Assembly (NCBI GenBank): GCA_964434285.1
Contig: CAYSUJ010000003.1
Coordinates: forward strand, 20,992 to 84,991
DNA: 64,000 nt
Reading direction: 5' to 3'
From: an uncultured Candidatus Saccharibacteria bacterium
GTDB lineage: Bacteria > Patescibacteriota > Minisyncoccia > Phycocordibacterales > UBA2100
A model generated the notes under the pieces. That model did not search any database and was not told the origin of the DNA. It saw nothing but the letters and a program-made list of their open reading frames with translations. A program made the translations under genes and the position numbers. This document shows positions 272 to 61,672 of this stretch, one piece after another. Numbering within the stretch: the first letter of the stretch is position 1; every line of letters starts with the position of its first letter.

Positions 272-2677
272 CTACTGCGTTTCGTTAATACCATCAAACG
301 GATCTTTTCCCACCCTTACATTTTCAATGAGCCTAGAGAGCCACTGTTCCGATGGATTGAGCTGAGCAACGCGCTCGAAAGCCCGCGCCGCATCCTCGCT
401 CCGCCCAATCTGATTGTAGGAAAGTCCAAGGACAAACAGTGCATTCGCGTAATCCGGCGACAGTGAGACCGACTGCTCCAAAACACGAACTCCTTCTTGA
501 TATGCTCTTCCAGAATAGAGAATGTAACCTAAATTGAACCAACCTAGCGCGTCATTTGGAACAAGCCTCACCACCTCTGCAGCCGCTTCAACGGCGGGAT
601 CCCCGTTCCCAGACGCCGCTTCAACTTGTGAGAGAAGATAGTATGCAATTGCAAGGTCGGGCTTAAGTGCTATCGCCTCATGAAGATAGGTGCGAGCACT
701 GTCTGCTTCGTTGCGTGCAATTGCAATTTGAGCGAGTCGAACTTTCGGAATTGGATTTGTTGGCTGCGCCTCAAAGGCCCTCGCGTAAGCGTCACTCGCA
801 TTCTCATAGGCACCGTCAACGTTTGCACCGGCAAATTCGCCATATATTTGCGCGAGTGACAGCCAGTTTTGGTATGTATCACCCAGTCGCACCGCAGTGA
901 GACCATGCTCAATAGTGTGCTCTAGTGTTTCTTTGAGCGCGATACGAGCCGAGTCGTCATTAGCCCCACTTTGAATGAGCGTAGCAAGTTGGGCAACGCC
1001 AAGCTCTGCCGCCGCCCGGTGTGCACGATCATTTCTAGGCGAAATGACGAGCGCTTTCTCCATCATGCTTGTGGCGCCAGCGAGATCCCGTGAAGTGTTA
1101 AAAAAGTGCGCTGCGCGATTGACAAAAGTATTGGAGATAATCTCCCGGAGTGCCAAACCAGAAGAAAAAACGACCAAAAAACAAAGTAGGAGAGTTCCAA
1201 TTGCTGTCAACACGGACCGTACTGACTTGACCCCCACAGGAAGAGAGTGGGTCGGTCTATCGCCAACAGAGCAAACTGCTAAAAACGCAAGAAACAGGAA
1301 TGTCACCCCGCTCATCGCGACACTCGGTGTATATACCATATGATAAGCAACTAAATACGATGCAGCGACAAGCGTAATTCCGAATAGCGCATGCATGCGC
1401 ACGAGCGGCTGATTCTCACGCACTAAACGCAAGAAGTTAAATAGAATTAAAAAAATTATACTTGTCCACGCGAGTAACCCAATCGCGCCCACAGCAAATA
1501 TTGACGTCGGGATTACCCCGACACCAGAATTAAAGTCAGTATTCCAAAACGGCGTCAGATTCACTTCTTGCGGCTTGTGAAGACCCCATTCACGAATGAA
1601 TGAGTTTGGTCCGGCACCAAAGAGAAACTCTCGTGGAGCATCAATGGACTGACGTGCAACATCGAGCGTTCCCTGCCAGGAAGGACGAACTTCGATTTGA
1701 TCGATCTGTAACCATGATGGCAGTACGTTATTTACAGATGCATTATAAAAGCCGGCGACACAGAATAATACAGCGCCTATAAACCACGCAGAGGCTCTTC
1801 CAGAAGCAGCAAACCAAGAATCACTATGGATACTGCGCGAATATCTCAGAACGCTCAAACCACCCACAAGAAGGAGCACCGACGTGCCCCAAAATACGTC
1901 CCTGAAGTGGACGATTACGAGAATAAAAAGCGCTAGGACACTTAAAATAGCTAGAGCCCATCGACCCGCCCTTTGGCTTACAATTCCGACCCACAATGTA
2001 CCCGATAGAAAAAGACCTAGACCTGCAATGATGCCCAGGTCGCGCCACGAACCAAAAAGATTTGCCGTTTCTCCTTGAAGCACTCCGCCGAAAGAGAGCC
2101 ACGATGGAAAGATTGCATATGCGATTTGAAATGAAAAAAGTATAAATAGCCCTCCAGCGAACGCCAAGAGCGAGCGAACGATTACCACCCGATGATCGGT
2201 ACAAATCAGCGTTATGAGTAAGAAAATTGCATACCAAATTACTGTAGCAATCAATGTGTCTTGCTCAACACCACTCCCTACTATCGAGGAAACATTCCAC
2301 CCTGAGACACCGGCAGAAATGAAATATGCGAGTGGGAGAAGCCCCACTACCAGGATGAACGGAGTGCTTGGTATACGTATAACGCCCTCCGAAAAACGCG
2401 CGGTAGCCCAAAAAAAAGATGCGGAAATCAAAAATAAGCTTGCGAGAATAAGTTTACTCTGCGCCTGAGTCATCCACGGTACCGGAATTGTAAAAAAAGG
2501 CAGTAGGGCAGAAAAGCCGAGAAGAAGTAGACGTGATACGGTATCGCCCCAATGAGAAAAGCCTCCCACTTCACGGACAGGCGTCGCCTGCGATTGCGAA
2601 ACCGCACTTGGACGTACAGCCTCTTGTCCAGAAACATGCTCAACCATAGTGGTGATGTGCAGAGACCGATCTCCCAT
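272..2677 (-). CDS. O-antigen ligase (Wzy/WaaL)-like polytopic membrane protein with C-terminal TPR repeat domain
   Basis: 801-aa ORF. The N-terminal ~450 aa have 10+ predicted TM helices in a Wzy_C-like arrangement. The C-terminal ~300 aa are TPR-like repeats (A-rich helical repeats with recurring AxxYxxxG/LG patterns). The real start may be an internal Met (MVEHV...). Confidence 0.6.
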   Translation of the reverse strand: MGDRSLHITTMVEHVSGQEAVRPSAVSQSQATPVREVGGFSHWGDTVSRLLLLGFSALLPFFTIPVPWMTQAQSKLILASLFLISASFFWATARFSEGVIRIPSTPFILVVGLLPLAYFISAGVSGWNVSSIVGSGVEQDTLIATVIWYAIFLLITLICTDHRVVIVRSLLAFAGGLFILFSFQIAYAIFPSWLSFGGVLQGETANLFGSWRDLGIIAGLGLFLSGTLWVGIVSQRAGRWALAILSVLALFILVIVHFRDVFWGTSVLLLVGGLSVLRYSRSIHSDSWFAASGRASAWFIGAVLFCVAGFYNASVNNVLPSWLQIDQIEVRPSWQGTLDVARQSIDAPREFLFGAGPNSFIREWGLHKPQEVNLTPFWNTDFNSGVGVIPTSIFAVGAIGLLAWTSIIFLILFNFLRLVRENQPLVRMHALFGITLVAASYLVAYHMVYTPSVAMSGVTFLFLAFLAVCSVGDRPTHSLPVGVKSVRSVLTAIGTLLLCFLVVFSSGLALREIISNTFVNRAAHFFNTSRDLAGATSMMEKALVISPRNDRAHRAAAELGVAQLATLIQSGANDDSARIALKETLEHTIEHGLTAVRLGDTYQNWLSLAQIYGEFAGANVDGAYENASDAYARAFEAQPTNPIPKVRLAQIAIARNEADSARTYLHEAIALKPDLAIAYYLLSQVEAASGNGDPAVEAAAEVVRLVPNDALGWFNLGYILYSGRAYQEGVRVLEQSVSLSPDYANALFVLGLSYNQIGRSEDAARAFERVAQLNPSEQWLSRLIENVRVGKDPFDGINETQ

Positions 2678-2900
2678 GATCCAATGATACCTTATTCTCC
2701 ACCAATATCATCGAAGGCGTGGGGATTCTCACTTCAGCATGCAGAATATGACGATGGAAATATTCCTATTTTTTTCTTATGCTCTACGCCATATCCGCTC
2801 ACTAATCTGGTTTGTTATTTTGGAAGAAGAAAAGCGGCGCTTTTCAGCTTCGCTCGGCGCTGCACTACACTAACCCTGTTCGTTCGATTGGCTTCCTCGG

Positions 2901-2926
2901 AAATGGGAGTGCAAGCACTCCCATTT
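2901..2926 (-). terminator. Hairpin terminator immediately 3' of rnpB
   Basis: On the minus strand, AAAUGGGAGUGC-UUGC-GCACUCCCAUUU gives a perfect 12-bp stem followed by UUUCC. It sits directly after the P1 3' strand of RNase P RNA. Confidence 0.6.
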
Positions 2927-2933
2927 CTCTCTG

Positions 2934-3360
2934 AATCTGCACCGTAAGCCGGATTCTGTCGAGAGCAGCCATGTATCTGGGATGACCGTTACCGATCACC
3001 TCAAGCGGTTCCCCCTCGCGCGGAGCGCGAAAAATTTGCAATATACAATTTGATAAATAAGCTCCAAATGCCAATTTCGAAATTGAGATTTGAAATTTCT
3101 TTGCAAATTGATCTTTGGTACTTGCAAATTCTTTGTGCTCCGCACAAAGATACGACCTTGCACGCAGGTAGGAATTTTGCCGTTGCATCCATGCGTTTCC
3201 GCACAGTTCACCCCGAAGGGGTCGCAGGATCTCTCCTTTGACGTTTCTGTTCGCATCCCTTGGATTACCCAGGCGGGCGTTACCCACTACCGTTTGAACT
3301 GAATCACGCGTGTCCGGACTTTCCTCTAGTCTTTCGACCAGCGGCTGCCTAGTGCAGGAC
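2934..3360 (-). ncRNA. rnpB: RNase P RNA (bacterial type A) with a ~110-nt AT-rich inserted helix
   Basis: The reverse complement contains the universally conserved GAGGAAAGUCCGGAC (5' P4 strand), GGGUAACGCCCGCCUGGG and ACAGAAUCCGGCUUA (3' P4 strand). P1 pairing is CUGCAC/GUGCAG. An AT-rich block at + coordinates ~3025-3160 carries repeated AUUUGCAA motifs inserted into the core. This explains the poor-quality six-frame ORFs across 2865-3392. Confidence 0.85.
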
Positions 3361-8265: not shown

Positions 8266-8727
8266 TTATTGAGGGAAATTTTCGGGCAGAGTTGCGTAAT
8301 CGCCAATTTTAATGCCGTGTGTTGTTGCGAATCCTGCAGGAACTTCAAGGACATACTGCGCAGGGACGTTCGAGGTAAAGGAGGTCGGATATGTGTCCGG
8401 ACTCACCCCTTTTTCGATGTGCACGACTTCTCCTCGCGCAGAAATCCACAGTATATCGATGGAGAAAAGCATGTCCTTCATCCAGAACGCGTACATGCCC
8501 TCCTCGGGAAAAACAAAAAGCATCCCCTCGTCACTCTTGAGCGAAGGGGTGCCACTCAATCCCTGTGCACGCGCTACAGGTGTCGCCATAATCATGACAC
8601 GAATTGTGCGTCCACCAATACCGACGACGCCGGAAAGGTCACTGGATGACCCTTCCGGCGCAAGACCCCATAGCGTAAGCGCTACAAGCGCAATACAACC
8701 ACCAACAATGCCGACACTCTTCATCAT
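8266..8727 (-). CDS. DUF192 (COG1430) domain protein with N-terminal signal/anchor
   Basis: Motifs GMLFVFPEE...FWMKDM..SIDILWI...YVLEVPAGF...GIKIGD match the DUF192 family. Start trimmed to the ATG (MMKSVG) that overlaps the stop of the upstream DUF1761 gene by 1 nt. The longer ORF to 8871 would overlap that gene by 145 nt. Confidence 0.75.
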   Translation of the reverse strand: MMKSVGIVGGCIALVALTLWGLAPEGSSSDLSGVVGIGGRTIRVMIMATPVARAQGLSGTPSLKSDEGMLFVFPEEGMYAFWMKDMLFSIDILWISARGEVVHIEKGVSPDTYPTSFTSNVPAQYVLEVPAGFATTHGIKIGDYATLPENFPQ

Positions 8728-9137
8728 TACGAGAAGAGTACCAGAATTAAAGCCATGACGATAAACGAAACGAGCCAGTAGCCCGCGGTGATGAAGTAAT
8801 ATTTCAGCGGCTTCATCTCCCACAAAACCGAGCCAAGGAGAACGGGCGCCGTAAAGCCCACCCACGACCAAATACCGAGCTCTATTGCTCCAATCCAGTC
8901 ATAGACGCCCCACGCGATGCCGAAATGATTCATAACCCAGGCAATAACGATCGCCGCAAGAAAACCAATAAATGCCATCGTGGGCATCTTTTTCTTCCCC
9001 TCTTCCATCTTGCTCATATCGAGCCCCGCAGCTTTGGCCCATGAATCCCCGAATACTTTCGGGTTAAACCACGTCATGCCAAGAATGAGATTCGCTACCG
9101 CGGCGAGAAGTATGGGAACAAGTGTAACTTCAAACAT
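8727..9137 (-). CDS. DUF1761 family membrane protein
   Basis: MFEVTLVPILLAAVANLILGMTWFNPKVFGDSW... matches the characteristic DUF1761 N-terminus. Four predicted TM helices. Confidence 0.65.
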   Translation of the reverse strand: MFEVTLVPILLAAVANLILGMTWFNPKVFGDSWAKAAGLDMSKMEEGKKKMPTMAFIGFLAAIVIAWVMNHFGIAWGVYDWIGAIELGIWSWVGFTAPVLLGSVLWEMKPLKYYFITAGYWLVSFIVMALILVLFS

Positions 9138-9252
9138 AGTAAAAAAGCTAGGTGTATAAAATTCCCCGTCTTTCTATGGTACCGAGCCCTCGCCCCTGCG
9201 CCAGAGGGGGCTGTGTGCAACTTCGCTGGAAGGATGGCGATTTGTCATCTCA

Positions 9253-9284
9253 GGCCGCCCTCGGCCTCGCGGCCGAGGGCGGCC
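9253..9284 (-). terminator. GC-rich hairpin downstream of the DUF305 gene
   Basis: GGCCGCCCUCGGCC-UCGC-GGCCGAGGGCGGCC gives a 14-bp perfect stem with a 4-nt loop. It starts 8 nt after the DUF305 stop codon. The U-tract is weak. Confidence 0.45.
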
Positions 9285-9291
9285 CAGCCTT

Positions 9292-9903
9292 CTAGTACCA
9301 ACTCGTGAGCCACCCACGCATCATCTCAATTTCGCGTGCCTGCGAGGAAATGATGTTTTCTGCGAGCTGACGCATCTCATTGCGCCCAGAGTCGCGTATC
9401 ATCTGCGCCATCATGATCGCCATTTCGTGATGTGGAATCATTTGCTGCAAGAATTCGCGGTCGAATGCCTCGCCCGAGAGTTTTTCAAGCGCCGCGGTAT
9501 CGCCCGTCATGCCGCGCATATGCATCCCCATACCCCCCTCAGGCGGCGAGCCGCCGTACCACGCCTTGTACCACGAGCGCATTTCGTCAATTTCTGTCTG
9601 CTGAGCTGCGATAATCGCCTCTGCGAGCGAAAGAATCTCAGGCTTCTTCGATCGATCGAGTGCGAGTTTGGCCATTTCAATCGCTCCTTCGTGATGCGGA
9701 ATCATCTGGATGATGAAGTGCTGATCGGAAGCACCACGCATTTCCCCATCTCGCATCATTCCACCACCCGACATCATGTGCATCCCGCTTCGGGGGGCAC
9801 CGAGGCGGCTTGCCCCCAATGAATATCCGGCAATACCACCAATAAGCACACCAACAAGACCTACCACTAACACATTTGAGAGAACTGAATTTATTTTTTC
9901 CAT
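9292..9903 (-). CDS. DUF305 domain protein (periplasmic metal/copper-associated four-helix protein)
   Basis: Two copies of the MIPHHEGAIEMA / MIPHHEMAIMMA signature (the DUF305 HH motif). N-terminal TM anchor. Gly/Met-rich linker. Confidence 0.8.
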   Translation of the reverse strand: MEKINSVLSNVLVVGLVGVLIGGIAGYSLGASRLGAPRSGMHMMSGGGMMRDGEMRGASDQHFIIQMIPHHEGAIEMAKLALDRSKKPEILSLAEAIIAAQQTEIDEMRSWYKAWYGGSPPEGGMGMHMRGMTGDTAALEKLSGEAFDREFLQQMIPHHEMAIMMAQMIRDSGRNEMRQLAENIISSQAREIEMMRGWLTSWY

Positions 9904-9929
9904 AGTGTTTTCGTTAACCTCAGTAATGG

Positions 9930-10364
9930 TTACGAAAACGCATATGGTTCTTTGCGATTAAGAATGCCGCGCGAGAACAATTCTTGAAAGAGCGTCGGGC
10001 GTGCTGGAATACGCCGCAAGCGCACGCGAGCCCGCTCGTGTGCGACAGGCAGAGGCCACGTGGTAAAAAACATCGCACACACCACCAAGAGCGAGAGGAA
10101 TGAGGCAAACATTGCCTGCCACATCGAAAAGTGCTCGACAATCGTGCTCTCGCAAATTACCGTTTGCGCACCCTGCAAGGGACACCCGACGTGATGTTCT
10201 GGGTGAGACAAAAGCATTGGCAAGCCAAATAACGCAACGAAGAGAAAGGCACCGAAAACCGCCGAAGCAATAATCGATTTCACCTTTACACTATACGCCC
10301 ACCACTCAAAAACGCCACTTGCCATCGTGGCAAGAGAGAGGGCATTGTTTCTTACCCAAGGCAA
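9930..10364 (-). CDS. Hypothetical small membrane protein
   Basis: Three predicted TM helices, HPEHHVGCP...C motif. Sits between the DUF305 gene and the NirK-like gene. No family recognised. Confidence 0.4.
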   Translation of the reverse strand: MPWVRNNALSLATMASGVFEWWAYSVKVKSIIASAVFGAFLFVALFGLPMLLSHPEHHVGCPLQGAQTVICESTIVEHFSMWQAMFASFLSLLVVCAMFFTTWPLPVAHERARVRLRRIPARPTLFQELFSRGILNRKEPYAFS

Positions 10365-10373
10365 TCGGCATGC

Positions 10374-11831
10374 CTAGTGCGTCATCTCATCCACGTACGG
10401 ATTTTCGGACGTTGCTCCGGTACTTGTCGCCGCCGATGTTGATGATGTCAGAGACATTATAAATTTGTCCGCCGGAGCGTAGATGTCCGGACGCGGGTCG
10501 CCTTCGACTTGAATGATGGCCCACGCGCCTTTGTTCATACGAGCGAGCGCATGATCGACAAGCACAAGATTGCCCGGTACTTCGGCTTTGAATTCGACAA
10601 TGGCTGCGCCGCCAGGAAGAACGGCCGTTGTCTGAATGTTTTTGAAGGTACCTCCGCCGATGCCGCCTTCCGGATAGACGGTATCGAATATTTCGCCAAT
10701 CGGATGGAACGAGGAAATGAGACCAACACCACCATTCCCCACGTAGATTCGCGCGGTCTCTCCTGCTTTCATTTTCATGCGCGGTGCACCATCACTCTCT
10801 ATTCGTCCGTTGAATGTGATGTAATTTGGCTCTTCATCCAGAAGCGCATCCCCATCAAAAATCGTGAGACCCTTCTTGCCGATAACACCTTTCGTGTAGA
10901 GCTCGCCTTGCACGACGTAAAATTCTTTATCAACCCGTGGCAGCCCTTCTTTCGGCTCCACGAGAATGAGGCCGTACTGCCCGTGCGAATTGTGCGTGCT
11001 CACATTCGGCGTCGCGCAGTGATAGATATAGAGGCCGGGGTTGAGTGCTTTCCAGGTAAAAACCTTTGTCTCGCCCGGATTTACTTTCGATAACGTAGCA
11101 CCGCCGCCCGGACCCGTGACCGCATGGAGATCAATATTGTGCGGATGCAAGCTCGACGGATGGTTTGTGAGCGATACCTCAACCGTGTCCCCTTCGCGCA
11201 CGCGGAGCATCGGCCCGGGCACTTGTTTATTGAAGGTCCAGTAGTTGAAGTAAATGCCAGGTGCAATTTCCGCTATCACCTCTTGCGCAACGAGTTCGAT
11301 TTTTACGTGTTCGCTCGTCGTGCGGGTAATCGGTGGCGGAACGTCATTCGGATCAGCGCCAATATCAGCGACATGCTCGAAATTTTTGAAGTTCTTGATA
11401 AAAAAGAGAACATTCTTGAACGGCAAATCTGGAAGAGCCCCGCCCGGGTGATACACATGCATGAAGGCAGGCATGGCAAAGTGTGGTGCATACGTCTTAT
11501 CCGCCCACATGTAGAGAATCCCGCCCGCTACGATAACGCCAAGCGTTACCGCGAGGGTTTTCGAGTGCATGCGATAGACGATGCGCAAGATGAAAAATGA
11601 AAAAGCAGCCACCGCAATCGTGATGCCAATCCCTTGCATCATCGAATAGTGGATGAATGGATAAAACGCGATCAGTGTGTCGAATCCAAAATACCAAACC
11701 GCAGCGAAAGCCACTACTGCGCCGAGCACGACAAGCGAAACAAGTGCCGTCAACCAATATACCATGCTACCCGTATCCCCATTTCCCATGTGCCATGTGC
11801 CATGTGCCATGTGCCATGTGCCATGTGCCAT
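10374..11831 (-). CDS. Copper-containing nitrite reductase (NirK)-like two-domain multicopper oxidase with ~120-aa N-terminal polytopic membrane domain
   Basis: HPHNIDLHAVTGPGGGA matches the NirK HNxDFHAATG motif (type-2 Cu His plus catalytic Asp). YIYHCATP matches the YHC type-1/type-2 Cu ligand pair. Two cupredoxin-like halves. The N-terminus has 3-4 TM helices. The first 15 codons are a translated 7-bp tandem repeat, and an alternative start (MVYWLT, ATG at 11765) lies just downstream of it. Confidence 0.7.
   Translation of the reverse strand: MAHGTWHMAHGTWHMGNGDTGSMVYWLTALVSLVVLGAVVAFAAVWYFGFDTLIAFYPFIHYSMMQGIGITIAVAAFSFFILRIVYRMHSKTLAVTLGVIVAGGILYMWADKTYAPHFAMPAFMHVYHPGGALPDLPFKNVLFFIKNFKNFEHVADIGADPNDVPPPITRTTSEHVKIELVAQEVIAEIAPGIYFNYWTFNKQVPGPMLRVREGDTVEVSLTNHPSSLHPHNIDLHAVTGPGGGATLSKVNPGETKVFTWKALNPGLYIYHCATPNVSTHNSHGQYGLILVEPKEGLPRVDKEFYVVQGELYTKGVIGKKGLTIFDGDALLDEEPNYITFNGRIESDGAPRMKMKAGETARIYVGNGGVGLISSFHPIGEIFDTVYPEGGIGGGTFKNIQTTAVLPGGAAIVEFKAEVPGNLVLVDHALARMNKGAWAIIQVEGDPRPDIYAPADKFIMSLTSSTSAATSTGATSENPYVDEMTH
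11786..11831. repeat. Tandem heptanucleotide repeat (CCATGTG)x6.5
   Basis: Six perfect units at 11786-11827 plus a partial unit, read directly from the sequence. It overlaps the annotated 5' end of the NirK-like ORF, where it encodes MAHGTWHMAHGTWHM. Confidence 0.9.
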
Positions 11832-12103
11832 TAATTATATACCCCGAAACATCAACCCACCTTGGACTCAGTGTCGTATAATGTCAAAATGAACCTCCGC
11901 GAATGGTTACTCTATATCACCAATAATGAATCCATTTCTCGTCACGAGACGGAATTCGATATTGCGTTTTTCATCATTAACACCCTCGCGGTATTTGGAG
12001 GAAGCATCTACATTGGATATATCGGCGAGTGGCAATGGATTCCATTCCTCATCATTGAGTACGTCTGGTCAGTTGATACGATTCGTCACAATCGACCGTA
12101 GAG

Positions 12104-12709
12104 TTACGACCACATCGAGAGCAGAGCGTGGATATCAGACGCAAAATACGCAAGCGCGGTATTGAACATCACTGTTCCGATGCCGAGTGGCACTATCACG
12201 CGCCAGAGCGGATAGCGTAAAAGCCCCATCGGAATGGTCACGAGATCGCTGGAGAATGGCACACATGCACCATACAAGAAAAAGACAGCCGGCAATAGCC
12301 TCGGATGGTGTTCCTGCAGAGCCGCCAACCGCGTAAGTGCACGTTCTATTCGTGAAGATACGAGTGCTCGACCGAAATAACCAACGAAATAAGATGTGCA
12401 GTCGCCGAGCGACACTGCAATTGCCGTCGTTAAGCCAAGCGCGAGCGGGTTCAGACCGCCCGCCGCGAGCGCCATAAGCATCATATGGTACGGAATGCCG
12501 CTGAAGGTCGTAATCCCTCCCAAAAAAGCGAGTATAAATATGAAAACGTATGCATTCTCGACACCAATCAAACTTACCACCCGTTCCGCCGAAGAAAAAT
12601 AAAAAAGTGCCGATATCACGACAAGTGTGATGAGTGGCAACACGCCAAGTATCCGAGCGGAATACTTCTGCATAGGTATTAACGCGCCCGAGGCATTCCA
12701 GAATTCCAA
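12104..12709 (-). CDS. Putative DedA/VTT-family membrane protein
   Basis: Five to six TM helices. The YGACVPFSSDLVTIPMGLLRYPLWRVIVPLG segment resembles the DedA/SNARE-associated core. The likely start is an internal Met (MQKYSAR). Weak assignment. Confidence 0.4.
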   Translation of the reverse strand: MEFWNASGALIPMQKYSARILGVLPLITLVVISALFYFSSAERVVSLIGVENAYVFIFILAFLGGITTFSGIPYHMMLMALAAGGLNPLALGLTTAIAVSLGDCTSYFVGYFGRALVSSRIERALTRLAALQEHHPRLLPAVFFLYGACVPFSSDLVTIPMGLLRYPLWRVIVPLGIGTVMFNTALAYFASDIHALLSMWS

Positions 12710-13020
12710 TCGCTGCCCCCGAGGACACGTATCAGTGTGGCCTGTACTGATCCATTACGCTCTCCCCCAAAAACCATGACTCTCTCGCCGACATGCAATT
12801 GCGTGATGTCTCGTTCTCGTGGTCGCACTTCAGTTGTTGACAGGATGTGCACCCGGTGCTCACCATCACGCACATCATGGATAGTGATCGTATCGTCGGC
12901 AACCTGAACAACCTCGCCAAAGTATTGATCACGTTGCCACCGCGCATACATGCTTGCAGACGCTCCAGTAGCAAGCAGAATCACTACAACCATTCCTGCG
13001 ACCCAGTAATAATGTCTCAT
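12679..13020 (-). CDS. Hypothetical membrane-anchored protein (113 aa)
   Basis: One N-terminal TM helix followed by a beta-rich domain. No family recognised. Confidence 0.35.
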   Translation of the reverse strand: MRHYYWVAGMVVVILLATGASASMYARWQRDQYFGEVVQVADDTITIHDVRDGEHRVHILSTTEVRPRERDITQLHVGERVMVFGGERNGSVQATLIRVLGGSDWNSGMPRAR

Positions 13021-13228
13021 GATGTTCTTTTAAAAATTCTATCAGCGGCTGTGCGCCAATACAATGAATACGACACAACCGTACACGCATACGACTTGAG
13101 CGAGTGAAATTGTGTGAGAATCCCCGCAATGCTACTGGGCGCAAAGGTTTGACCAACGCCTCGCTCAAGGAGTATCCAGCCCATGCGCCTTATAATCAGG
13201 CGAAAATCGGCCACCCATGCAATGATGG

Positions 13229-14002
13229 TCACCTCCCGCCCCAGCCACGGCCACCTCCCCAACCCTCTCCGGGACCGCCTCCTCCACCAGTCTCGCGCCC
13301 TGAATTTATGATTCCAGCATATTCTTCCGCAGATACAAACTCGGGTGTATACGTTACTCCGCGTGCAGAGAGTTGCTCGGTAAAAGAGCGAAGGTGGTTG
13401 CGCGATCCACGCGAGAGATTGTCATAGACGAACACGATGTCTTCGTTATCAGTTCTCTCACTGCGCACGTTCAAATCATACAGATCAAGGTCTTCAACTC
13501 GAGCGCCTACGCGCAGCGCACTCTCAATAGACGCTTGCCCCTCGGAAGTCAAATCAGTGAATAATTTTTGAAGAGTCGGATCGACGAAAACACCAATAGT
13601 GTCGTCAGAAACCGGATCCGCTATGTTGTATTTCACAAGGAGCGTACGCACTGCTTCGGTGTGCGTTTGCTCACTCTGTGCAATATTCGAGAAGATGGGC
13701 AGATTCCATTTTTCATAGAGCGTTATGTACACATCGCGCGCAAGCTTCTCCTCTTCACGCATGTAGAGAAGATCTGCCTTCTCTGTTGTATCGATCTCTT
13801 CCGCCGGAAGCGCTGCAATACCGGGACGCGCAGAAAGGTAATCTGAAGGTTCGGGAGTGCCCGTAGCCTCCCGCCATCCCTGCATCCCCGGCCTCTCTGA
13901 CGGAATGGGCATGTCTCCTCCCCGCCAAGAGACTCCCGCAATGCCTCCAGCGAGCGCTGCGATGAGTCCGATAAGTCCCGCCCCGAATAAGCCGATATTC
14001 AT
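13229..14002 (-). CDS. DUF2202 ferritin-like domain protein with Gly-rich C-terminal tail
   Basis: The YMREEEKLARDVY...NIAQSEQTHTEAV...LLVKYNI block matches the DUF2202 / ferritin-like signature. N-terminal TM anchor. C-terminal GGGGGPGEGWGGGRGWGGR. Confidence 0.6.
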   Translation of the reverse strand: MNIGLFGAGLIGLIAALAGGIAGVSWRGGDMPIPSERPGMQGWREATGTPEPSDYLSARPGIAALPAEEIDTTEKADLLYMREEEKLARDVYITLYEKWNLPIFSNIAQSEQTHTEAVRTLLVKYNIADPVSDDTIGVFVDPTLQKLFTDLTSEGQASIESALRVGARVEDLDLYDLNVRSERTDNEDIVFVYDNLSRGSRNHLRSFTEQLSARGVTYTPEFVSAEEYAGIINSGRETGGGGGPGEGWGGGRGWGGR

Positions 14003-14068
14003 ATGAATGGAGGTAATGTGATTAAAGTAGGTGTCGTATTACGTATCGACGAACAGGTTCGGAATCGC

Positions 14069-14413
14069 TTACATCGATGCGCCTTTTCTCTGTCGCCAGC
14101 CTGCAGCATAGAGAAGCCCGACGACACATGATGGTAACGAAATCGCCGCATACCAAGTCCACGGACGATCGAACCCTAGAAGCCACACGTACGCACCCGC
14201 GAATCCAATGAAGACGATCGCACCAATAAGAGGAAAGCGCCATGCGACCACTGTGAACACAAGCAGCGCGAACGAGGGCATAAGGTGGACGAGGAATCCA
14301 ATAATCATCATCCACTCAAGCGGGCCTTCGAAGACATCGAGTGCAAAGGTGGAAATGAATGCAACGAAGGCGAGCGAGAGGATACGTGGTGCCCAATGAA
14401 GAAAGTCGCCCAT
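14069..14413 (-). CDS. Hypothetical small membrane protein (114 aa, 4 TM)
   Basis: Hydrophobic ORF with coding-like composition. No family recognised. Confidence 0.45.
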   Translation of the reverse strand: MGDFLHWAPRILSLAFVAFISTFALDVFEGPLEWMMIIGFLVHLMPSFALLVFTVVAWRFPLIGAIVFIGFAGAYVWLLGFDRPWTWYAAISLPSCVVGLLYAAGWRQRKGASM

Positions 14414-17326: not shown

Positions 17327-17674
17327 CTACTCGGCCTTGCCGCCACGAGCCCAACTCTTGATTCGACCGGCCAACTCGTCTCCTCCTTCAGGATGATCAG
17401 CAACGAAATTCTCAGGCAGAACATGCGATTCATCGTCGATGACGATTCCAAAGGTCTGGTTGACGCCGTTGTAGTCAATCCCGAGAGGTGCCGCACCCTC
17501 TCCGTCGTCACAGGCCTCAGTGAACGTCTTGAGCAGGTGCGCGAAGAGATCTTCTTTATCCATGCTGCGAGAGAAGGAATCGAACCTTCGTCCCCCCATT
17601 TCAGGAAACTCTTTCGAGAAAAGTACCCTGAGAGTGGGGTGTCCTACCGTTAGACGATCCCGCAATACCGGCAT
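17327..17674 (-). CDS. Hypothetical acidic protein (115 aa)
   Basis: Longest ORF in the region with reasonable composition. No domain recognised. Confidence 0.3.
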   Translation of the reverse strand: MPVLRDRLTVGHPTLRVLFSKEFPEMGGRRFDSFSRSMDKEDLFAHLLKTFTEACDDGEGAAPLGIDYNGVNQTFGIVIDDESHVLPENFVADHPEGGDELAGRIKSWARGGKAE

Positions 17675-24743: not shown

Positions 24744-25128
24744 ACGATTTTCTCCTTATTGGATAAATCGATGGCGGCTTTGAGACACACAAAGCCCGCC
24801 ACCAGGAGGGCCGAAGCCCCTACTAGGGTTTCCCCTAATAACGCGATGAACGCCCTGAATGACGGGTTGTCTATGTTCATCGCGATTCCTACGACCATGC
24901 CACCGTTGCCGATAGTTTAGGTCGTCGCCCTCTCGGGCCAATATTGGGTATGTAAAGAGCATAATAGCCCCGACTCGGCTATTGGCCAAGACCCTAGCAG
25001 ACCCCAGGTGTTTGCGAATAGGCTTCCACTACCACACGACGATTCAATGGCTTTGCGAAGTTAAACCACCCACCCGATGATTGGGGTAAGTATGATGGTC
25101 TTACAAATGGCTTTTTTCACAAACAGTC

Positions 25129-61072: not shown

Positions 61073-61672
61073 TTATTGTACCTTGCTCACAAGATCACTG
61101 AGCGCAAGTCCCCCGCTCCACTTGGTGATCAAATTACCTTGTGCATCCACCTGCACAAGCGTGTGCTGGTAAGTGACGCCGTATTTCTGCTTGAGCGCGG
61201 TTTCAGTGTCATAATTCACGTCAAGAATCGTAAGTCCTGCGGGAATCTTCGACATGTTTGCCTTAATATCGCTATCGAGTGCCTTACACGTTGGGCACCA
61301 TGAGGCGCGGAAGAAGAGAACTACGTCTCCTTCATTTGCTTTTGCGAGCTTCGATGCGGCATATGATTCGTATGAACCTTTCTGCATCATTGCGCCCTCG
61401 TCTTTCATCATGACGTCGTCTTTCTTTTCCATCATCGCGCCCTCGTCCTTCATCATTGCGTCCTTTTCCATCATTGCATCGTCTTTTTGCATTGCATCTT
61501 TTTCCATCATGGCGTCACTCTTCTCCGTCATTGCACTATCCTTTTCCATCATAGCTTCGTCCTTCATCATCGAATCGCCGCTTTGATTTGTAACGAACAC
61601 GCCACCCACAATGAGCGCAAGCACGACTACTCCTCCGATAATCCAATTCATCATATGGTTAGTGATATACAC
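61073..61672 (-). CDS. Thioredoxin-family protein with N-terminal Met-rich (AMMEKD) repeat region
   Basis: C-terminal thioredoxin fold with WCPTC. N-terminal TM anchor. Then about 8 imperfect repeats of (D/E)AMMEKD encoded by imperfect ~18-21-nt DNA tandem repeats. Confidence 0.75.
   Translation of the reverse strand: MYITNHMMNWIIGGVVVLALIVGGVFVTNQSGDSMMKDEAMMEKDSAMTEKSDAMMEKDAMQKDDAMMEKDAMMKDEGAMMEKKDDVMMKDEGAMMQKGSYESYAASKLAKANEGDVVLFFRASWCPTCKALDSDIKANMSKIPAGLTILDVNYDTETALKQKYGVTYQHTLVQVDAQGNLITKWSGGLALSDLVSKVQ

Follow-up and report, generated by a model that had tools for sequence, protein, structure and literature searches.

A heptanucleotide repeat carrying a start codon in every unit at the 5' end of a nirK-type gene: a candidate translational switch in a Candidatus Saccharibacteria bacterium

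The 64 kb window analysed here (64,000 nucleotides of contig CAYSUJ010000003.1, from an uncultured Candidatus Saccharibacteria bacterium) contained a gene for a putative copper nitrite reductase of the NirK type whose 5' end coincided with a perfect heptanucleotide array. The question raised by this locus was whether the array might switch the gene on and off. The reading proposed, which we hold tentatively and regard as quite possible though short of probable, is that the nirK transcript begins, at its extreme 5' end, with a slippage-prone repeat (the array), which would set the frame of the 5'-proximal AUG so that one allele in three was ON. Where transcription starts, whether the first AUG is used, how mutable the array is and whether there is any fitness benefit are inferred in this proposal, not shown here. 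The two features concerned were the following:

11786 to 11831, minus (coding) strand: heptanucleotide array, (ATGGCAC)x6 plus ATGG, which reads (CCATGTG)x6.6 on the plus strand (Tandem Repeats Finder and reading of the sequence).
10374 to 11831, minus strand: nirK-type gene, taken as the longest open reading frame (ORF) of 485 aa, with a three-helix N-terminal anchor and a two-cupredoxin nitrite reductase domain.

Tandem Repeats Finder described the array as 6.6 copies of a period of 7, with 100% matches, no indels and a score of 92, and it was by far the strongest short-unit repeat of the window. On the minus strand its context was GGGG-TATAAT-TA-(ATGGCAC)x6-ATGG-GAAATGGGGATACGGGTAGC-ATG-GTATATTGG, the stretch from TATAAT to ATGG continuing into GAAATGGGG. 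A perfect array of this period and length (46 nt) is not a product of chance in 64 kb; our own arithmetic gives about 4^-39 per position. The array had the repeat properties of loci with translational phase variation: it was perfect, its unit length was not divisible by 3 and its copies were enough for slippage (about 5 or more). Perfect repeats without diverged units are a sign of recent or ongoing slippage. A sequence-only reading of this DNA had placed a perfect heptanucleotide repeat at the 5' end of a NirK-like gene, and this was borne out by the 100% matches and by the longest ORF (10374-11831). Its six units did lie inside the start of the ORF when that ORF was read from 11831 to 10374, but not inside the deposited protein, whose start at 11765 is downstream of the array.

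The gene is predicted, from its sequence, to encode a membrane-anchored copper nitrite reductase of the NirK type. The product of the longest ORF, which begins MAHGTWHMAHGTWHMGNGDTGSMVYWLT, showed three hydrophobic helices at roughly residues 23-110 and a nitrite reductase domain at about residues 159-451 (nt 10479-11357), with the Pfam domains Cu-oxidase_3 and Cu-oxidase_2 (PF07732 and PF07731). Residues 159-451 matched the PDB entries 2zoo, 1kbv (AniA) and 5tb7 with E values of about 1e-99 to 1e-101, giving the two cupredoxin domains homologous to solved structures that are expected of a NirK. The same architecture was present in thousands of homologues, and those that carried a name were copper-containing nitrite reductases of Paceibacteria, Nomurabacteria and other Patescibacteria. 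From these nirK relatives alone, the DNA would be placed in the Patescibacteria. The type-1 copper Cys and the His that follows it aligned with 2zoo and 5tb7; the canonical His-Cys-His-Met set was incomplete, the axial Met (NGMYG in AniA, 2zoo and 5tb7) being replaced by Gln (HGQYG, about residues 275-290), a substitution common to all close homologues. A conserved Met/His-rich linker, HFAMPAFMHVYHPGG, was observed directly past the third membrane helix (about residues 112-126), in this product and in all close homologues.

The effect that a change in copy number would have depends on the start and stop codons in and around the array:

11829 to 11831, minus strand: unit 1 ATG, giving a 485-aa product in frame with nirK, 2 nt from the predicted -10 box.
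11822 to 11824, minus strand: ATG of unit 2, predicted 5'-most AUG of the transcript, in frame +1, opening a 24-codon ORF that ends at TGA 11752-11750.
11787 to 11789, minus strand: ATG in the partial unit at the end of the array, giving 471 aa (MGNGDTGS...), probable ancestral start.
11763 to 11765, minus strand: ATG of the deposited annotation (MVYWLT..., 463 aa, identical to database protein P0001).
11767 to 11769, minus strand: TAG that ends the frame +2 short ORFs from ATGs 11817 and 11796, 1 nt before ATG 11765.
11750 to 11752, minus strand: TGA that ends the frame +1 short ORFs from ATGs 11824, 11803 and 11782.

The ATGs in frame with nirK were located at 11831, 11810, 11789 and 11765, and the frame was closed upstream by TAA 11837-11835, within the TATAAT hexamer that precedes the array. 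This TAA also ended a mini-ORF (11835-11852, minus strand; ATG 11852, five codons MFRGI) with AAGGTGGG upstream, the stop being 3 nt before the first repeat ATG. Each unit of the array held an ATG, and the array contained no stop codon in any of the three frames; gain or loss of units would therefore never remove an in-frame ATG, and would change only its rank from the 5' end. In simulated alleles of 2 to 10 units, out-of-frame products terminated early, after 9-31 codons, and the frame followed a cycle of period 3, with unit 1 in frame at n = 3, 6 and 9 and unit 2 in frame at n = 4, 7 and 10; alleles with at least 3 units always kept an in-frame ATG. The earlier proposal that one unit gained or lost shifts the frame thus stood in so far as the other two frames stop early (at 11752-11750 and 11769-11767), but failed in that an in-frame ATG was retained at every copy number of at least 3. 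A frameshift alone is insufficient to turn the gene off, and silencing needs commitment of the ribosome to the 5'-most AUG. After termination at the TAG in frame +2, re-initiation at ATG 11765 is possible by an inferred coupling.

Which AUG is 5'-most depends in turn on the promoter. Two perfect TATAAT hexamers, facing apart, were located in the 57-nt spacer between nirK and a divergent 70-aa ORF, from a total of 17 on both strands of the window:

11834 to 11839, minus strand: perfect TATAAT, predicted -10 box of nirK, separated from the first repeat ATG by 2 nt and from the second by 9 nt.
11877 to 11882, plus strand: perfect TATAAT, followed after 6 nt by the start (ATG 11889) of the divergent 70-aa ORF (11889-12101).

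The layout of this spacer is that of two back-to-back putative promoters, and on the side of the 70-aa ORF it corresponds to a textbook leaderless arrangement. A scan of 11600-12100 for sigma-70 pairs of -35 and -10 boxes gave no pair, and the nirK promoter call refers to the -10 box alone. Transcription in bacteria usually starts 7-8 nt past the -10 hexamer. The start of nirK transcription is accordingly predicted, from the position of this hexamer, at 11827-11826, inside unit 1, with unit 2 supplying the first AUG; the ATG of unit 1, only 2 nt from the -10 box, is too near for a transcript from that promoter and is probably absent from the mRNA. The array began 2 nt past the -10 box, not between the -35 and -10 positions, and would be a leader only if the protein started at 11789 or 11765. 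Of the suggestion that the repeat alters the spacing of promoter and untranslated region, what would hold is a change in the length (and frame) of the leader; the -35/-10 spacing would stay as it is, since the best -10 box (TATAAT 11839-11834) is upstream of the array.

The initiation mode in the rest of the window was compatible with use of the 5'-proximal AUG. Shine-Dalgarno motifs were lacking before most of the genes of the window, and none resembling them was found before ATG 11789 or ATG 11765. Hexamers resembling a -10 box (a match to TATAAT at 5 or more of the 6 positions, with A2 and T6) were located 5-9 nt before the start in 11 of 62 window genes, compared with 1.35% of all window ATGs; they peaked 6-8 nt before the first ATG, with 10 of 66 window genes at those three spacings. 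Because Shine-Dalgarno motifs are rare and such hexamers lie 6-8 nt before many starts, the pattern suggests that this organism relies heavily on leaderless mRNAs. The same hexamers were present 5-9 nt before the start in 23 of 48 loci of nirK relatives, and three of four close relatives fetched individually (L121, L122 and L124) carried TACAAT, TAGAAT and TAGAAT, each followed by exactly 6 nt; nirK is typically predicted to be leaderless in this clade. From the 6-8 nt spacing usual for window genes and nirK relatives, the 5' end of the nirK mRNA is predicted to fall in unit 1 or unit 2. A search of the literature on leaderless translation or repeat phase variation in Patescibacteria returned nothing relevant.

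In the proposed switch, transcription from TATAAT 11839-11834 would begin inside unit 1, and the first AUG of the mRNA would be that of unit 2 at any copy number, since every unit has its ATG at the same phase. Ribosomes would load at this 5'-proximal AUG, as they do on leaderless or nearly leaderless mRNAs, its distance to the promoter being fixed. One 7-nt unit gained or lost would then rotate the frame of the 5'-proximal AUG relative to the body of nirK. One copy-number class in three would give a full-length NirK, extended at its N-terminus by a short cytoplasmic tail that the repeat encodes (n = 4, 7 and 10 with unit 2 as the start, or 3, 6 and 9 with unit 1); peptides of 9-31 codons, ending 1 nt before or 13 nt past ATG 11765, would come from the remaining two classes, with at most low-level re-initiation. 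Expression of this membrane-anchored nitrite reductase would then be high or low (possibly with three levels) in a stochastic, heritable and reversible manner. The perfect array without decay, the frame cycle of period 3, the abutting TATAAT, the scarcity of Shine-Dalgarno motifs, the leaderless layout of window genes and nirK relatives, the lineage-specific gain of the array and the precedent of neuO (see below) support this reading. For the assembled allele (n = 6), use of unit 2 would mean OFF and use of unit 1 would mean ON. A more ambitious form, in which a start-codon-bearing repeat adapted to leaderless translation forms a heritable three-state switch (full-length, re-initiation-coupled or off) on the nirK of a Candidate Phyla Radiation (CPR) episymbiont, is in our opinion unlikely. 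Were this form true, no earlier case of repeat-based phase variation would have been reported for that radiation, nor for any nitrogen-cycle enzyme.

Several observations weigh against a switch. In-frame starts that could rescue OFF alleles were present in every third unit and at ATGs 11789 and 11765, and the latter two could permit internal initiation at any copy number, blunting a switch. The spacing of the nirK -10 box was atypical (2 nt to the first ATG and 9 nt to the second, vs. the usual 6-8 nt), and the predicted mRNA has a leader of 2-3 nt and is not strictly leaderless. With unit 2 first, the assembled allele would fall in an OFF class, which is possible yet unexpected for a population consensus; the copy number itself comes from a metagenome assembly and may be a consensus or a collapsed value. 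No second allele of nirK and its array was found in protein clusters, in Logan, JGI and NCBI contigs, in GTDB genomes or in JGI metagenomes. Tandem Repeats Finder found no comparable short repeat elsewhere in the 64 kb window, giving no hint of a wider set of phase-variable genes, and nirK is not a classical contingency gene.

The array may instead be a neutral, recently expanded leader repeat, in which slippage duplicated a 7-nt segment including the ancestral ATG 11789 while NirK is made from 11789 or 11765 by internal initiation, with little or no effect on expression and no selection; this is possible, although we lean against it. The start codons of related proteins bear directly on it. 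The one database protein with 100% identity, P0001 (NCBI), had 463 aa and began MVYWLT, so that the deposited start is ATG 11765 and the array lies upstream of it, as a neutral repeat would; the alternative in-frame ATG that the sequence-only reading had pointed out at this position is thereby confirmed as an annotated start. The only other member of the 90% cluster of P0001 was P0121 (JGI), its closest relative, which began MEPEGAKGSARSLVILIT. The N-terminal tail of P0121 differed from the peptide encoded by the array and aligned without gaps to NGDTGSMVYWLT (the NGDTGSMVYW region), favouring a start at 11789 and, with it, a neutral origin. The conserved motif YMWADKTY would fall at residue 85, 93, 100 or 107 for starts at 11765, 11789, 11810 or 11831, respectively, and was located at residue 94 in P0121 and at a median of 91 (range 61-107) over 63 homologues. 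Because the P0121 tail aligns without gaps and position 93 fits the relatives, ATG 11789 is probably the ancestral start; on this best guess the array represents six extra copies of a 7-nt segment bearing a start codon.

The distribution of the array among relatives was also compatible with recent neutral expansion. No comparable repeat was found by Tandem Repeats Finder in 271.6 kb around 63 related nirK genes; for this reason the array is best regarded, from these comparisons, as a probable private, recent and lineage-specific gain at a functionally sensitive place (next to the promoter and bearing start codons), compatible with a new switch or with a neutral microsatellite. Its absence from all relatives and its being the sole such repeat of the window both fit the neutral explanation. 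Against the neutral explanation, where leaderless genes are frequent and Shine-Dalgarno sites few, a leader that begins at the mRNA 5' end with six upstream AUGs, spread over three frames, is unlikely to leave translation unaffected, ATGs 11789 and 11765 themselves had no Shine-Dalgarno-like motif, and the array pushes the start to about 44 nt from the -10 box, where relatives normally have 6 nt.

Further searches for the locus were mostly unproductive. Exact-protein look-ups of the 485-aa and 463-aa forms gave no record; scans of GTDB genomes and of JGI metagenomes gave no nirK above 85% identity and no contig joining the repeat to nirK; and a protein search with the N-terminal 131 aa returned one irrelevant match and missed P0001 itself. 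Neighbouring genes of nirK were not conserved across the 63 related loci (a single match to the VTT domain), and this lack of synteny means that the neighbourhood can neither confirm nor refute the assembly at the repeat junction.

The heptamer itself was found well outside this lineage. The peptide pattern MAHGTWHM led to (ATGGCAC)n arrays in 17 unrelated genomes, among them Komagataeibacter, Streptomyces, Paraburkholderia (15 copies), Acidovorax and a Hadarchaeota metagenome-assembled genome (MAG), and in about 40 metagenome contigs. These arrays (L031-L047 and L081-L120) had 5-30 copies and were mostly intergenic or non-coding. Many were beside other heptamer arrays (L082, L042 and three loci of one NPL-UPA2 MAG) or at contig ends or gaps (L034, L039 and L044), and some of the sequences appeared to come from eukaryotes and had telomere-like repeats close by. 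Four tandem (ATGGCAC) units gave 2 hits in viral contigs, compared with 0, 1 and 2 for three shuffled heptamers. The idea of (ATGGCAC)n as a special shared element was rejected for lack of enrichment over the shuffled heptamers in those contigs. That heptamer arrays occur in many unrelated genomes, mostly in non-coding DNA and, in viral contigs, not above shuffled controls, suggests that they arise spontaneously, which counts in favour of a neutral repeat at nirK. One of these loci, L034 (a Pseudomonadota MAG), is a second, independent case of (ATGGCAC)n at a gene start: 8.9 copies at 1440-1501 overlapped the 5' end of a 555-aa subtilase ORF (1452-3119), whose product begins MAHGTWHMAHGTWHMAQIALLLFALFSS, the array being just ahead of a signal-peptide-like segment and adjoining a scaffold gap.

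If the whole ORF were translated, the array would encode a real N-terminal extension, (MAHGTWH)2MGNGDTGS from ATG 11831, a His/Met/Trp-rich metal-binding or regulatory tail whose length would change in steps of three units. This is, we think, very unlikely. The frame is open from 11831 and closed just upstream by the TAA, the resulting position of YMWADKTY (residue 107) equals the maximum among the homologues, the mini-ORF with AAGGTGGG upstream stops 3 nt ahead of ATG 11831, into which it could couple translation, and M-A-H, with His at position 3, resembles the amino-terminal Cu/Ni-binding motif. Set against these points, nothing similar to the extension was seen in the N-termini of the 63 homologues (the MAHGTWH peptide was present in 0 of 63), ATG 11831 is 2 nt from the -10 box and probably off the transcript, and a 7-nt unit is an improbable route to a peptide repeat. 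The tail is moreover predicted to be cytoplasmic, away from the copper sites, from the three helices, the positive loop between helices 2 and 3 (RIVYRMHSK) and an outward-facing enzyme domain. Of the features of an ATCUN-like tag (a free N-terminus with His-3, a location in the same compartment as the metal site, conservation in the family), only M-A-H was present. The metal-binding N-terminal tag suggested by the sequence-only reading was consequently not borne out, the peptide being found in none of the 63 homologues and the tail being predicted cytoplasmic.

Two further explanations, considered jointly as highly improbable and the least credible of those examined, are that the array is a protein-binding or spacing element for a divergent promoter (e.g. 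nitrite-, NO- or copper-responsive operator half-sites) or an artefact of assembly. The array was located 58-103 nt upstream of the start of the divergent 70-aa gene and its unit includes the palindrome CATG, as an operator might, but no adjacent regulator gene was found and a period of 7 bp mismatches the helical repeat. The frequent position of heptamer arrays at contig ends or gaps elsewhere (L034, L039 and L044) indicates that they are hard for assemblers; here, however, the array was well inside a contig reported at 127 kb, and typical reads are longer than its 46 nt. RNA folding of the 5' region, or leader, was not significant (z = -1.4), an unremarkable value that lends neither explanation support.

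The switch proposed for nirK can be compared with several known systems. It resembles neuO, the O-acetyltransferase gene of the CUS-3 prophage in E. coli K1, whose 5' coding region contains (AAGACTC)n and which is ON at values of n divisible by 3; copy number ranges from 3 to 53 among strains, and n-1 and n+1 subpopulations were measurable, as shown experimentally (PMC13001214). In both genes the ORF has, at its extreme 5' end, a repeat with a 7-nt unit, where slippage shifts the frame (or, at nirK, would shift it) and a full-length product is expected from one copy-number class of three. They differ in that neuO has a fixed start upstream of the repeat, whereas at nirK every unit supplies an ATG and the array abuts the -10 box; in that variation is experimental for neuO, while the nirK array is known from one assembled allele; and in that neuO is a surface-modification gene of a pathogen and nirK encodes a respiratory or detoxifying copper enzyme of an environmental CPR bacterium.

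Translational phase variation by a 5' coding repeat, as proposed for nirK, also occurs in Neisseria opa, with (CTCTT)n, and in Haemophilus influenzae lic1, with (CAAT)n, where alternative ATGs in different frames lead to graded and not binary expression. These genes have units of 4-5 nt, ATGs outside the repeat and mRNAs led by a Shine-Dalgarno motif, and belong to pathogens with many such loci per genome, unlike nirK. In the hmw1A and hmw2A genes of H. influenzae, 7-bp repeats are located in the promoter, and nadA has a promoter or leader repeat switch of this type. If nirK starts at 11789 or 11765, its transcribed leader would likewise contain a 7-bp repeat, the length of which could tune expression; the nirK array differs in holding AUGs and being open in all frames, which would give translational effects (upstream ORFs), and in not lying between -35 and -10. 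For marine Beggiatoaceae, direct repeats of the heptanucleotide TAACTGA are reported between genes; a genome has 169 such sites, all sharing one unit, and a post-transcriptional network has been proposed for them (PMC4679880). The likeness consists of heptamer direct repeats upstream of genes in environmental bacteria, and the difference is that the nirK array is one locus in 64 kb, with relatives that have no repeat. The array is thus a candidate, still unproven, for membership of the known class of repeat-mediated translational switches, and such a role is mechanistically reasonable.

To our knowledge, records of repeat-driven phase variation come almost solely from host-associated pathogens and concern surface or restriction-modification genes. 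If the proposed switch were real, it would extend bet-hedging by slippage to energy or detoxification metabolism within the CPR, in an ultra-small and host-dependent environmental bacterium. The presence of nirK in MAGs would then over-state active nitrite reduction, and for switches of organisms that lack Shine-Dalgarno initiation, an ATG per unit beside a leaderless promoter would be a simple and testable rule of design. If the array is neutral, it would be an ordinary microsatellite and mainly a caution on the annotation of start codons.

The neighbourhood of nirK (8727-14413) included genes for a DUF1761 protein, a DUF305 protein, an unannotated membrane protein of 144 aa, a VTT/DedA-domain protein and a ferritin-like DUF2202 protein; it may be a metal-handling region, though one not conserved beside nirK in relatives. 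A membrane-anchored thioredoxin-like protein with a WCPTC motif was encoded at 61073-61654 (minus strand). The N-terminal half of this protein consisted of imperfect Met-rich repeats (MMEKD / MMKDEGA), derived from 18/21-nt tandem repeats at 61385-61564, and the product is possibly a Cu(I)-binding protein or a methionine-rich redox protein.

Three RNA features were also observed in the window, all on the minus strand. An Rfam tRNA match extended across 100 nt at 17565-17664 (49 bits) with no ARAGORN call, and may represent a tRNA that contains an intron or is unusual in another way. The other two were a bacterial class A RNase P RNA at 2933-3357 (105.4 bits, barely above the threshold of 100 bits) and a LOOT RNA (RF03000, 61.5 bits) at 24807-24923.

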